From the NCBI RefSeq assembly GCF_024298765.1, contig NZ_CP101210.1: a DNA stretch of 64,000 nucleotides, one strand, 5' to 3'. Positions 37,292 to 41,817 of the stretch are shown here, one piece after another. Source of the DNA: Escherichia coli (lineage in GTDB: Bacteria; Pseudomonadota; Gammaproteobacteria; Enterobacterales; Enterobacteriaceae). A program made the position numbers and the translations under genes. Position 1 is the stretch's first letter. Each line of letters begins with the position of its first letter. Below the pieces are notes generated by a model. That model had not been told where the DNA came from and ran no database searches. It worked only from the letters and a program-made list of their open reading frames with translations.

Positions 37292-37661
37292 TTCGCCTCC
37301 GGATACTTACCCAGGGTAATGTTATTTACCGTTCTGTAATTGTCGCGGGTCATCAGGCCGGTCGCCCTGCGAGCCCGGAGGATATCGATGCTGTTTATTA
37401 ACTGAGAGCGGGTACAGGCGCTGAATCCCGGCTGGTCGGTAGCACCAGCGCGTATTTTTCCACGAGAAAGTTCACCGCATCACACAGTGAAATGCCTGCC
37501 TCAATATGCTGCTCAATCACACGTTCATCGGCAAAAGGTGTGTCATTCAGTGTGAGGCCATAGTGCTGGTCCAGCAGTCGGGACAGCAGTATCTGCCAGA
37601 TTTCAACAGGAGACGGGCGAGAACTGGCCGCCTGCCCGGGTAATACAGGTAATGTTTTCAT
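37288..37661 (-). pseudogene. cbtA: CbtA-type toxin (cytoskeleton-binding), apparent 1-bp frameshift
   Basis: N-terminal [73 protein letters not shown] then premature stop; the conserved tail ...[51 protein letters not shown] resumes in another frame; span is 374 nt. Confidence 0.65.
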
Positions 37662-40352: not shown

Positions 40353-40572
40353 ACTTTGCTCCTTATCGGTGGTTAAGATTTACTGGTGCAATAAATGAAA
40401 AAAGCCGCGTCTCCCGGAGAAGACGCGGCCTGACGGGTGAAATGAATAAGGTTTATTGTCTGAGAGGCCTTTCACTGGCGAGCCACGCATTAAGCGGCTT
40501 TCCGGTAACAATGGCTGGGGCTGTATTTACCTTTGATATTAATAATGTGCAGAGAAACGCATGGTTTACTCC

Positions 40573-40983
40573 TTAGATTTTAAGTTTGTCCTGGGCTACA
40601 ACGACAGGTTTTCCGGATGTGTCGATGACTCCTACCGTCGGTACGCCATTTTTGATTTCGAAGAACGGTTTGTTGCTACCTGAGCACAGTTGATTGTCCC
40701 CGTATTCAATCATTTGTGCTTTCCCGGTTTTCAGGTTAACTACCGAGACAGTGTAGTCGTAGCACCAGGCACCACCACGTTCAAGCACGAAAACATAGCT
40801 GTTATCTTTATAGTTGAACTGATTCTTTGTCTGGCAATTCATACCGTCAATTTCGGTACAGGAAAACGCTTCTGTAGTATTAACGTATTTGATGTTATTT
40901 GGCAGTTTTACTTGTTTCGCAGTAGCGAAGACAGAGAACAGAATAGTTACAGCAACGAGTAAAGTTTTGATAAAAGTTTTCAT
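40573..40983 (-). CDS. small secreted protein, unknown function
   Basis: 136 aa; N-terminal signal peptide MKTFIKTLLVAVTILFSVFATA; 4 Cys in mature part; hairpin plus T-run terminator at about 40401-40440. Confidence 0.6.
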   Translation of the reverse strand: MKTFIKTLLVAVTILFSVFATAKQVKLPNNIKYVNTTEAFSCTEIDGMNCQTKNQFNYKDNSYVFVLERGGAWCYDYTVSVVNLKTGKAQMIEYGDNQLCSGSNKPFFEIKNGVPTVGVIDTSGKPVVVAQDKLKI

Positions 40984-40998
40984 GATAGACTCCTTAAA

Positions 40999-41487
40999 TT
41001 AGTTAACCGCAGCTACGTAGTTTTTCACCAGATACGCGAATTCATGCACGCCAATTTCACCGAACCAAACCAGGTAGGCCGGGTCATCTAAACCAAAGTA
41101 ACGGTAGCCAACAACTTCATGGGTTTTTGGGTTATAGAGTGTTACGATAAAGTCCCAGCCGCAGGTATTGGCTTTGCAACCGTCGCCCTGGAACCAGACT
41201 GTACCGTTAATGTTTACTGGCGTGATACCTCCACCAGGGCCATCCATATAGCCGCCTTTACCGAACATGCCGCTCAGTCCGACCGGTTTTAATGCTTTGT
41301 CGATAGCGGCTTTGTAGGTAGCGTCACCTTCGTACAACTCGTACGTTGATGGACACGCTCCAGGTTGTTCAGCCCAGGCTTCCGGGTTACAACTAAGAGC
41401 TTGTTTTACGGTAGCCGCTTCTGCGTTAAAGTTAAAGCCCGTGAACAGAACCGCCAGAAATAACATAAGGGTATGTAAACGTTTCAT
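40999..41487 (-). CDS. secreted protein, unknown function
   Basis: about 163 aa from internal Met of ORF 40999-41790; signal peptide MKRLHTLMLFLAVLFTGFNFNAEA; Cys-containing motifs GACPST and DGCKANTCGWD. Confidence 0.55.
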   Translation of the reverse strand: MKRLHTLMLFLAVLFTGFNFNAEAATVKQALSCNPEAWAEQPGACPSTYELYEGDATYKAAIDKALKPVGLSGMFGKGGYMDGPGGGITPVNINGTVWFQGDGCKANTCGWDFIVTLYNPKTHEVVGYRYFGLDDPAYLVWFGEIGVHEFAYLVKNYVAAVN

Positions 41488-41817
41488 TGTAAATATTCTT
41501 CCGTTGTAAATGGCGCTGGAAAATTTCTCATCAGTGAAACCTTCCGGAAGTTTCCCCCCCTTGTATGATGTATATCGCCAGTATTTTATTTCATCCCGGC
41601 TGTAATTTTTATATTCCCCGGCACGTGCAATAACGCTGACCAGAGATATAAGGCTCATTAATAACTTTACAGGTAATTTCATAATTAAATTTCCAGTGAG
41701 TGAATTGACAGGTGAGGGGTAAAACTTTCTCTCAGGTAATATATATATGAAAATATTTTCAATAACACCAGACAGGAAAAACACCACCACAGGCGGTGGC
41801 GTTTCTTTGGGGCGTCT

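Follow-up and report, generated by a model that had tools for sequence, protein, structure and literature searches.

A putative divergent Ivy-type protein and its phage-family partner form a mobile gene pair in a CP4-44-type island of Escherichia coli

Organisation of the locus

We analysed 64,000 nucleotides of an Escherichia coli genome (contig NZ_CP101210.1 of RefSeq assembly GCF_024298765.1; this whole stretch is referred to as the window) with respect to two small adjacent genes on its minus strand, which are designated open reading frame (ORF) B (41487-40999, 162 amino acids) and ORF A (40983-40573, 136 amino acids). As judged from sequence comparison and structure prediction, ORF B appears to be a divergent, mobile and phage-associated relative of the lysozyme inhibitor Ivy which is paired with ORF A, a member of an uncharacterised phage protein family.

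The N-termini of both gene products consist of a basic n-region, a hydrophobic core and an A-x-A site and contain no lipobox. The predicted signal peptide of ORF B, MKRLHTLMLFLAVLFTGFNFNAEA (codons 1-24, 41487-41416), is followed by ATVKQ, that of ORF A, MKTFIKTLLVAVTILFSVFATA, by KQVKL, both signal peptides having been assigned by eye. Each protein possesses four cysteines, located at positions 33, 45, 104 and 109 in ORF B and at positions 42, 50, 74 and 100 in ORF A. The genes are spaced by 15 nucleotides; ORF A is preceded by a canonical TAAGGAG Shine-Dalgarno sequence, that of ORF B being weak in the window allele (GGAAG, 10 nucleotides from the ATG). The transcript of the pair probably ends 140 nucleotides past ORF A, where a hairpin of 13 base pairs, 8 of them GC, with a loop of 4 nucleotides (40431-40402) is followed by a T-run, the entire element, which resembles an intrinsic terminator, spanning 40392..40431 on the minus strand.

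Upstream of the pair and in the same orientation lie a dynamin GTPase gene (46183-43787), an RdcB/YjcZ gene (43790-42885) and the gene of a patatin-like phospholipase (42888-41818), jointly referred to as the operon. The distance from the patatin stop codon to the ATG of ORF B measures 330 nucleotides. The region represents a CP4-44-type island which in E. coli adjoins yeeA and sbmC and in which the dynamin GTPase, RdcB/YjcZ, patatin, ORF B and ORF A genes are followed by those of a DUF932 protein, an antirestriction protein, RadC/YeeS, YeeT and CbeA/CbtA. A previous sequence-only reading of this DNA had described two small secreted cysteine-containing proteins at 40573-41487, co-oriented with a GTPase/lipase operon about 330 bp away and succeeded by a hairpin terminator. 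All of this agrees with our observations: the coordinates are exact and the five genes share the minus strand.

Relationship of ORF B to Ivy

The most conspicuous feature of ORF B is its CKANTC loop (codons 104-109, 41161..41178 on the minus strand), which is presumably closed by a disulfide bond and which HMMER, hhalign and MAFFT consistently align with the lysozyme-binding loop CKPHDC of Ivy (C104-K-A-N-T-C109-G versus C-K-P-H-D-C-G). The loops are of equal length, are closed by Cys-Gly and belong to closely similar patterns, CKANTCG-x3-I-x-[TV] in ORF B and CKPHDCG-x3-I-x-V in Ivy. The invariant segment of the ORF B family around the loop, G-C-K-x-x-x-C-G-W-[DE]-[FY]-I-x-T-L-Y-N-P, stands opposite A-C-K-P-H-D-C-G-S-Q-R-I-A-V-M-W-S-E in Ivy, and the cysteine pair and the glycine of the loop are invariant in nine diverse relatives of ORF B. 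Comparison by hhalign with E. coli Ivy, the query sequence of which agreed with PDB entry 1GPQ, yields P values of 4.9e-4 for the profile of the E. coli family and 1.1e-4 for a broader profile, with 81 collinear columns. When the ORF B profile was searched by hmmsearch against 177,635 PDB sequences, five matches were obtained at E <= 10, four of which constitute all four distinct Ivy sequences of the PDB (best E 0.057).

A further link is provided by a 312-amino-acid protein from Klebsiella plasmids which is 33% identical to ORF B over 96% of its length (tblastn E 8e-11; hhalign probability against the ORF B family 99.1%, E 8e-19). This protein matches the Pfam family Ivy (PF08816) over the loop region with an independent E-value of 2.8e-4 and bears the RefSeq name "Ivy family c-type lysozyme inhibitor". 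The connection of ORF B to Ivy via this relative is hence a transitive one. Ultimately, an AlphaFold model of ORF B was calculated from 11 sequences, with a predicted local distance difference test score (pLDDT) of 63 and a predicted template modelling score of 0.63. Its elements follow the order helix-helix-beta hairpin-loop-beta-beta-beta-helix. The sequence-only reading had recommended structure prediction and a subsequent fold search; performed with Foldseek against the PDB, the latter places Ivy entries (1GPQ, 4PS6, 1XS0 and 1UUZ) in all of the top six positions with probabilities of 0.96-0.60, the next match falling below 0.15.

Several observations do not favour this assignment. The confidence of the model is moderate, loop residues 104-114 have a pLDDT below 50, and the template modelling score towards Ivy amounts to 0.37-0.48. 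A Pfam scan with ORF B gives no match even at E <= 10, its score against NCBIfam NF007443 is only 11.6 bits (cut-off 180), and each of the sequence tests against Ivy, taken singly, is weak or moderate and falls short of significance. In addition, the histidine at position 4 of the Ivy loop, which in the Ivy-lysozyme complex contacts the catalytic residues of lysozyme, is an asparagine in the window allele. Among the loop alleles found elsewhere (CKANAC, CKSNAC, CKSDAC and CKAHAC in the type of about 160 amino acids; CEQGNC and CERGNC in the 312-amino-acid type) histidine occurs solely in CKAHAC; the Ivy signature CKPHDC is thus not kept, the lysine at position 2 being retained in the 160-amino-acid type. 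Considering the five lines in combination, i.e. motif, hhalign, PDB hmmsearch, bridging relative and predicted structure, we regard it as very probable that ORF B adopts an Ivy-type fold. The earlier speculation that the two genes might encode lysozyme inhibitors is therefore supported for ORF B alone.

Outside the Ivy family, PADLOC recognises neither ORF B nor ORF A, phmmer against the PDB gives no meaningful match for either of them, ORF A has no Pfam match, and in NCBIfam the 11.6-bit Ivy score of ORF B is the sole match of the two proteins. We would like to note that a homologue of canonical E. coli Ivy is encoded, annotated as hypothetical, by Escherichia phage PHB10 (MK524177.1, 14591-14950; 38% identity, E 8e-23), the sole phage with such a homologue among 50,697 catalogued ones.

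ORF A and its phage family

ORF A belongs to phrog_8968, which it matches with an E-value of 2.6e-45 (residues 1-131 on positions 1-133 of the 135 of the profile). One member of this family, gp182 of the Salmonella giant phage SPN3US, is 37% identical to it (BLASTP E 2e-17). Searched exhaustively with HMMER, the ORF A profile retrieves four distant relatives (P0100, P0105, P0109 and P0111; 24-34% identity), whose common pattern with ORF A reads L-P...F-W-C...C...Y-x-L-V...G-G-x-A-C-x-D...V-x-N-L-x-T-G-K-A...C...F; 49 catalogued giant phages, SPN3US-like ones and those of Erwinia, contain relatives of P0111. In SPN3US, gp182 is part of an array of exported proteins: gp181 (phrog_17072) and gp183 (phrog_5248) are paralogues of the ORF A family (hhalign probabilities 93% and 80%), and gp180 (phrog_9424) is a further exported protein. 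A literature search produced no paper on gp180-183 of SPN3US.

The predicted structure of ORF A is all-beta (pLDDT 64), and a structural search with this model gave no informative match. We considered whether ORF A could be one of the lysozyme inhibitors MliC/PliC, PliG or PliI and abandoned this identity, as a protruding SGxxY loop on a beta-barrel or beta-sandwich was not found.

Giant-phage origin of the cassette

The nearest copy of the pair outside E. coli is located on a 222-kb "plasmid" of Enterobacter ludwigii (NZ_CP134650.1, "plasmid unnamed1", 222,441 bp; our loci L015 and L025), with amino acid identities of 75% for ORF B and 77% for ORF A. This replicon encodes thymidylate synthase (thyA), RNase H, an S80 prohead protease and two proteins with an SLT domain, of 2377 and 232 amino acids; one of the two is encoded 7 kb downstream of the cassette. 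Its SMC protein is 58-69% identical to those of the phages Asesino, phiEaH2 and SPN3US. By its gene content NZ_CP134650.1 is evidently a giant-phage genome of the SPN3US/phiEaH2/Asesino kind filed as a plasmid. Replicon and relaxase typing yielded no assignment for this record, and it may reflect a carrier state or pseudolysogeny. In IMG/VR, four phage contigs exhibit ORF B with ORF A immediately behind it, three of them of 220-225 kb and one a partial sequence of 107 kb.

In the giant phages the gene order is YfjT-like, YfjT-like, gp180-like, ORF B, ORF A, gp183-like and onward to SMC. At the nucleotide level the window matches the phage arrays (blastn against L015 and L010, 77% identity) over 41494-40541 on the minus strand, a span which holds nothing but ORF B, ORF A and the opening codons of a gp183-type gene. 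The latter, which belongs to phrog_5248 and begins with MRFICALAF in L010, is reduced in the window to the seven codons MRFSAHY and a stop codon (40539..40562, minus strand), still preceded by a TAAGGAG Shine-Dalgarno sequence of its own. On the other side, the upstream flank in islands of the L006 type keeps the 3' end of a gp180-type phage gene together with its Shine-Dalgarno sequence. As the phage has complete copies of the flanking genes of which E. coli retains truncated pieces, these sequences are most simply read as a transfer of the cassette from a phage-type array into the island. It has to be held against a phage placement that none of the 50,697 catalogued phage genomes contains ORF B; this placement hence rests on uncultured or mis-catalogued genomes.

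The genes of the array are bounded by near-identical TAA...AAGGAGT...ATG junctions (window 40996-40989 and 40572-40565; L006 9468-9547), and in L006 ORF A is absent precisely between two of them. These junctions suggest cassette-like gain and loss by recombination. The YfjT-like exported proteins of the giant-phage arrays (L010 7598-8551, L015 8106-8567; PF27224, phrog_3429) belong to the family of yfjT from the CP4-57 prophage of K-12, suggesting a wider exchange of genes for small periplasmic proteins between giant phages and CP4-type islands.

Pairing of the two genes and independence from the operon

Of the 12 loci examined that carry an Ivy-like gene of this clade, 11 have a member of the ORF A family beside it, in either order. 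The 160-amino-acid type is followed by its partner in the window-type islands, in L028/L029, L015, L010 and L030-L033; the 312-amino-acid type is preceded by it in L018, L034 and L035, where identity amounts to about 31-33% for each protein. The sole unpaired locus is that of a Klebsiella plasmid (L013). The 312-amino-acid protein itself (L013 6998-7936, L018 7476-8414, L034 and L035) consists of an Ivy-like domain, a Pro/Ala-rich linker and a four-cysteine domain which matches phrog_5248 (E 1.7e-4), a family paralogous to that of ORF A; ORF A itself does not match the C-terminal half (hhalign probability 1%). The protein is a natural fusion of an Ivy-like domain with the four-cysteine family. 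ORF A-family genes are also encountered without an Ivy-like gene, namely in SPN3US, L021 and L016/L024.

Within E. coli the pair nearly always lies directly behind the operon on the same strand. Outside this setting the cassette occurs without the dynamin, RdcB and patatin genes (L010-L012, L015, L018 and L030-L035), i.e. in giant phages (L015, L010, L030-L033) and, in a diverged version, in enterobacterial islands (L018, L034, L035). The slot past patatin has three variable contents: a gene remnant fused to ORF B plus ORF A as in the window; a gene of 180 codons plus an ORF B variant without ORF A (L006); and a DUF4339 gene plus a variant 34% identical to ORF A (L016/L024). The same cargo slot exists in L018 in the absence of the operon. 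Compared to strain 07_3636, ORF A has a synonymous divergence (dS) of 0.70 and patatin one of 0.05; the dS of the pair is 5-15 times that of patatin and rdcB, with the breakpoint at the junction of the remnant and ORF B, which indicates that the pair has been exchanged independently of the operon. The most plausible account of why pair and operon go together in E. coli is that both occupy a common cargo slot, located upstream of DUF932 in islands of the CP4 type.

The patatin protein starts with MSTEMKTGLVLSGGGAVG and has no signal peptide, its GxGxxG motif beginning at residue 11. It is therefore expected to be cytoplasmic, the two small proteins being exported. A role of the pair in protecting the envelope from the patatin lipase, as envisaged by the sequence-only reading, is not borne out by these findings, and the co-occurrence analysis which that reading had suggested reveals no obligate pairing with the three-gene operon, an outcome which the same reading had named as refuting its idea.

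The operon itself (46183-41818, minus strand) occurs in 2591 of 5426 E. coli genomes, and its dynamin protein is a paralogue of CrfC/RdcA (558 bits at a cut-off of 1146). PADLOC yields only weak matches for the operon (E 1e-4 to 0.02), and a literature search found no report of it as a defence system; possibly the operon represents an as yet uncharacterised system of defence or abortive infection.

The gap upstream of ORF B and its start codon

The 330-nucleotide gap contains two features. About 20 nucleotides past the patatin stop codon, a hairpin identified by consensus match in a sequence scan, CACCGCCTGTGGTGGTG followed by TTTTT (41782..41798, minus strand), is terminator-like and would separate the operon from the genes downstream. 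The second feature is a remnant of 65 codons (41488..41682, minus strand) which comprises a signal peptide of its own and about 44 further residues and reads through into ORF B with no intervening stop. With 49% identity (E 4e-18) it matches residues 1-63 of a secreted 180-amino-acid protein, the gene of which is whole in other islands (L006 8098-8640). Relative to L006, 711 bp are gone, by deletion or replacement, with the junction at window 41501/41494, 7-14 nucleotides before the ATG of ORF B. A GYF_2/DUF4339 label for the remnant was dropped since Pfam sees no such domain in the intact 180-amino-acid relative, and the similarity of the remnant to the DUF4339 protein of L016/L024 is not significant.

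Because the remnant is fused in frame to ORF B, RefSeq lists a protein of 227 amino acids, WP_000775500.1, which appears to be a chimera of the two. This call has been propagated over more than 1700 member sequences (cluster P0001). Compared to ATCC 25922 the remnant carries five non-synonymous and no synonymous changes, and all ORF B homologues of 160-161 amino acids, including those of phages, start at MKRLH. Moreover, in a protein initiated at the upstream ATG the second signal peptide would become an internal membrane anchor and the cysteine-rich domain would reside in the cytoplasm. Since these three points concur, the observations indicate that ORF B starts at 41487.

In the neighbourhood of the pair, the toxin gene cbtA (37398-37661, minus strand) is shortened to an open frame of 87 amino acids, cbeA being intact; RefSeq flags cbtA as frameshifted in a strain which is identical over the queried 1.4 kb around the two ORFs.

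Conservation, spread and loss in E. coli

Pairwise ratios of non-synonymous to synonymous divergence (dN/dS) range from 0.14 to 0.20 in ORF B and from 0.12 to 0.22 in ORF A, both within E. coli and in comparison with the phage copies, for which dS exceeds 1. Out of 5426 complete E. coli genomes, 2408 carry the pair, about 2250 of them in intact form, and 2591 carry patatin. On account of the low dN/dS and this wide presence, ORF B and ORF A are real genes under purifying selection and not chance reading frames. Word-seeded searches of 5.8 billion proteins returned close relatives alone, from E. coli, Shigella and metagenomes. In GTDB representative genomes the ORF A profile had no match, this search being restricted to a single peptide pattern and thus uninformative on distribution.

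ORF B is not indispensable, as it has been lost in some E. coli lineages. In the ST131 strain 2017_APHA it is split by ISEc12, an element of the IS21 family (L004 5087-8350), and in strain 07_3636 its translation reveals an internal nonsense codon. The 85%-coverage pattern of the ISEc12-split gene recurs in several other genomes (H57-H62, spread sample).

Proposed function and alternative explanations

According to our proposal, ORF B and ORF A would make up a mobile cassette complete in itself, derived from the array that encodes small exported proteins in SPN3US-like giant phages; it would have landed in the cargo slot of a CP4-44-type island and would be a neighbour of the operon without being part of it. 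Exported to the periplasm, ORF B with its Ivy-like fold would bind and block a lysozyme-like muramidase or a lytic transglycosylase, the CKxxxC loop entering the active-site cleft as in Ivy. ORF A, as the conserved periplasmic partner, may bind this target as well or else modulate ORF B. The peptidoglycan would thereby be protected from a wall-cutting enzyme arriving from outside. In the phage, the enzyme in question would be a transglycosylase associated with the virion of a superinfecting phage, the latter being excluded in the manner of Spackle, and the E. coli island would retain the benefit.

Ivy proteins inhibit c-type lysozyme and lytic transglycosylases, as far as the citations of Clarke 2010 in PMC3660660, PMC10139938 and PMC10746161 indicate, and the periplasmic phage protein Spackle of T4 blocks the tail lysozyme gp5, leading to superinfection exclusion (PMC7677548). 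What the sequences show is how the genes are built, their export signals, the homology and fold relating ORF B to Ivy, the derivation from phages, the pairing, the operon independence and the purifying selection; the inhibitor activity, the target and the exclusion phenotype are inferred. A Spackle-like role is favoured since resistance to animal lysozyme is of no use to a lytic giant phage, which does possess an SLT protein of a size suited to the virion and profits from excluding rivals. The proposal is weakened by the failure of a sigma-70 promoter scan to yield a passing candidate on the minus strand upstream of ORF B, by the disruption of ORF B in the two strains mentioned, and by the precedent of Brucella PhiA, which possesses a lysozyme-inhibitor fold and shows no inhibition in vitro (PMC8334348). 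Weighing these points, we judge the chances to be about even that the pair is a periplasmic inhibitor cassette guarding the wall from incoming wall-cutting enzymes. The more specific idea that both proteins jointly neutralise a virion-borne transglycosylase or lysozyme at the wall-breaching step, and thus form a superinfection-exclusion module, is put forward tentatively and considered less likely than not.

Considerably less probable than protection from incoming wall-cutting enzymes is the classical role of Ivy, i.e. that of an acquired inhibitor of animal lysozymes which confers resistance to host innate immunity on gut and extra-intestinal E. coli. The homology of ORF B to Ivy and the wide occurrence of the pair in human and animal isolates fit this role, lysozyme inhibitors are known to aid lysozyme tolerance (PMC2267010, PMC3458809), and the variation of loop position 4 (N, H or D) could tune the specificity to different lysozymes. 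However, lytic giant phages, which have no obvious need for such a function, keep the pair under purifying selection, the key histidine is replaced in the window allele, and E. coli has, as stated for the species, an Ivy of its own (PMC10139938). Nor would this role give ORF A anything to do.

Unlikely, in our view, is control of a resident or element-encoded lytic transglycosylase, be it a host autolysin or one of the phage's own wall-degrading enzymes, with an effect on lysis timing. A role of this kind has been suggested for Ivy acting on MltB and for IltA/LiiA acting on MltF; Ivy inhibits MltB and partly MltA/B, and IltA/LiiA furnish a precedent for an inhibitor acting together with a modulator (PMC10139938, PMC10746161). 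Moreover, the cassette-bearing phage encodes two SLT-domain proteins, one of them 7 kb downstream. Yet no transglycosylase gene lies near the pair in the E. coli island, and phages of the SPN3US type with the same SLT proteins have no ORF B.

It is more doubtful still that the pair serves as orphan immunity against muramidase toxins of competing bacteria, such as Tge-type effectors of type VI secretion systems or pesticin-like bacteriocins. Small periplasmic cysteine-containing proteins encoded in arrays on mobile elements and exchanged in a mosaic, cassette-like fashion would be in keeping with this, and a periplasmic location suits the neutralisation of imported wall-degrading toxins. Against it, none of the loci examined has a toxin or secretion-system gene close by, immunity between bacteria fits poorly with genes that reside in lytic giant phages, and PADLOC, NCBIfam and the PDB reveal no likeness to known immunity families. 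Very improbable is mere hitch-hiking of the pair as cargo that is without current function in E. coli: the interruptions of ORF B, its weak Shine-Dalgarno sequence and the result of the promoter scan point in this direction, but the low dN/dS, seen among E. coli copies and also against those of phages, and the large number of genomes with an intact pair do not.

Least credible, and by now largely refuted, is that the pair is an immunity protein or antidote to the neighbouring patatin lipase, for although the pair almost always follows the operon on the same strand in E. coli, the numbers of genomes with pair and patatin are similar, and each slot variant holds an ORF B- or ORF A-family gene, the cassette exists without the operon in giant phages and other islands, patatin has no export signal and would reside in a different compartment, a terminator-like hairpin and a gene remnant intervene, the divergent dS reveals an independent swap, an Ivy fold implies inhibition of a glycosidase rather than a lipase, and the shared slot, occupied without the operon in L018, accounts for the association.

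Significance

With the periplasmic inhibitor cassette as the preferred reading, a "hypothetical" gene of nearly half of all complete E. coli genomes gains a candidate function as inhibitor of a wall-cutting enzyme in the periplasm. The natural target of Ivy has been debated between host lysozyme and bacterial lytic transglycosylases, and the occurrence of an Ivy-type protein in giant phages points to a third possibility, the enzymes by which phages breach the wall. If the pair indeed acts in exclusion, it would constitute an anti-phage barrier in about 44% of sequenced E. coli and the first known Ivy-type inhibitor in phage-phage or phage-host conflict, and it would matter for selecting therapeutic phages against E. 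coli. Irrespective of its function, the cassette documents that genes pass between giant phages of the SPN3US kind and CP4-type islands of E. coli, and its analysis corrects the widespread chimeric call WP_000775500.1 as well as the cataloguing of a giant-phage genome as a plasmid. The loop alleles of ORF B, its partner ORF A and the natural fusion protein represent concrete reagents with which the hypothesis can be addressed.

Comparison with known systems

T4 Spackle (gp61.3) resembles ORF B in being a small, phage-encoded periplasmic disulfide protein, the disulfide of ORF B being presumed. Its fold, however, is an unrelated helical bundle, it inhibits allosterically and it has no sequence similarity to ORF B, so that the likeness is one of analogy only. 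As possible models of ORF A we considered MliC/PliC, PliG, PliI and Brucella PhiA, all of them small periplasmic all-beta proteins with disulfides. The IltA/LiiA pair of P. aeruginosa (PMC10746161), in which two envelope proteins act on one lytic transglycosylase, possibly exemplifies the logic of a two-gene module. In contrast to the cassette, it consists of a Sel1-repeat protein and a lipoprotein encoded by non-adjacent genes, and there is no homology.

The gp180-gp183 array of SPN3US (phrog_9424, phrog_17072, phrog_8968 and phrog_5248) shares with the cassette the presence of signal peptides throughout; ORF A corresponds to the gp182 family and the seven-codon remnant to a gp183-type gene. 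SPN3US differs in having no Ivy-like gene, and the E. coli cassette appears as a two-gene excerpt of such an array.

The closest counterpart of ORF B is Ivy (YkfE; Ivyp1 and Ivyp2 of P. aeruginosa; PF08816; 1GPQ, 1XS0, 1UUZ, 4PS6). Both are exported, with mature proteins of about 135 amino acids and the same predicted order of secondary structure elements, and they are collinear over about 80-110 residues. A Cys-x4-Cys loop and a glycine are found at the equivalent place between two beta strands, with the lysine at position 2 preserved. In contrast to Ivy, ORF B shows only about 24% identity, lies below every curated family threshold, contains CKANTC with asparagine for histidine instead of CKPHDC and possesses an additional N-terminal cysteine pair (C33 and C45). 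Ivy is, moreover, chromosomal and belongs to the Rcs regulon, whereas ORF B resides on mobile islands and in giant phages beside a phrog_8968 gene.

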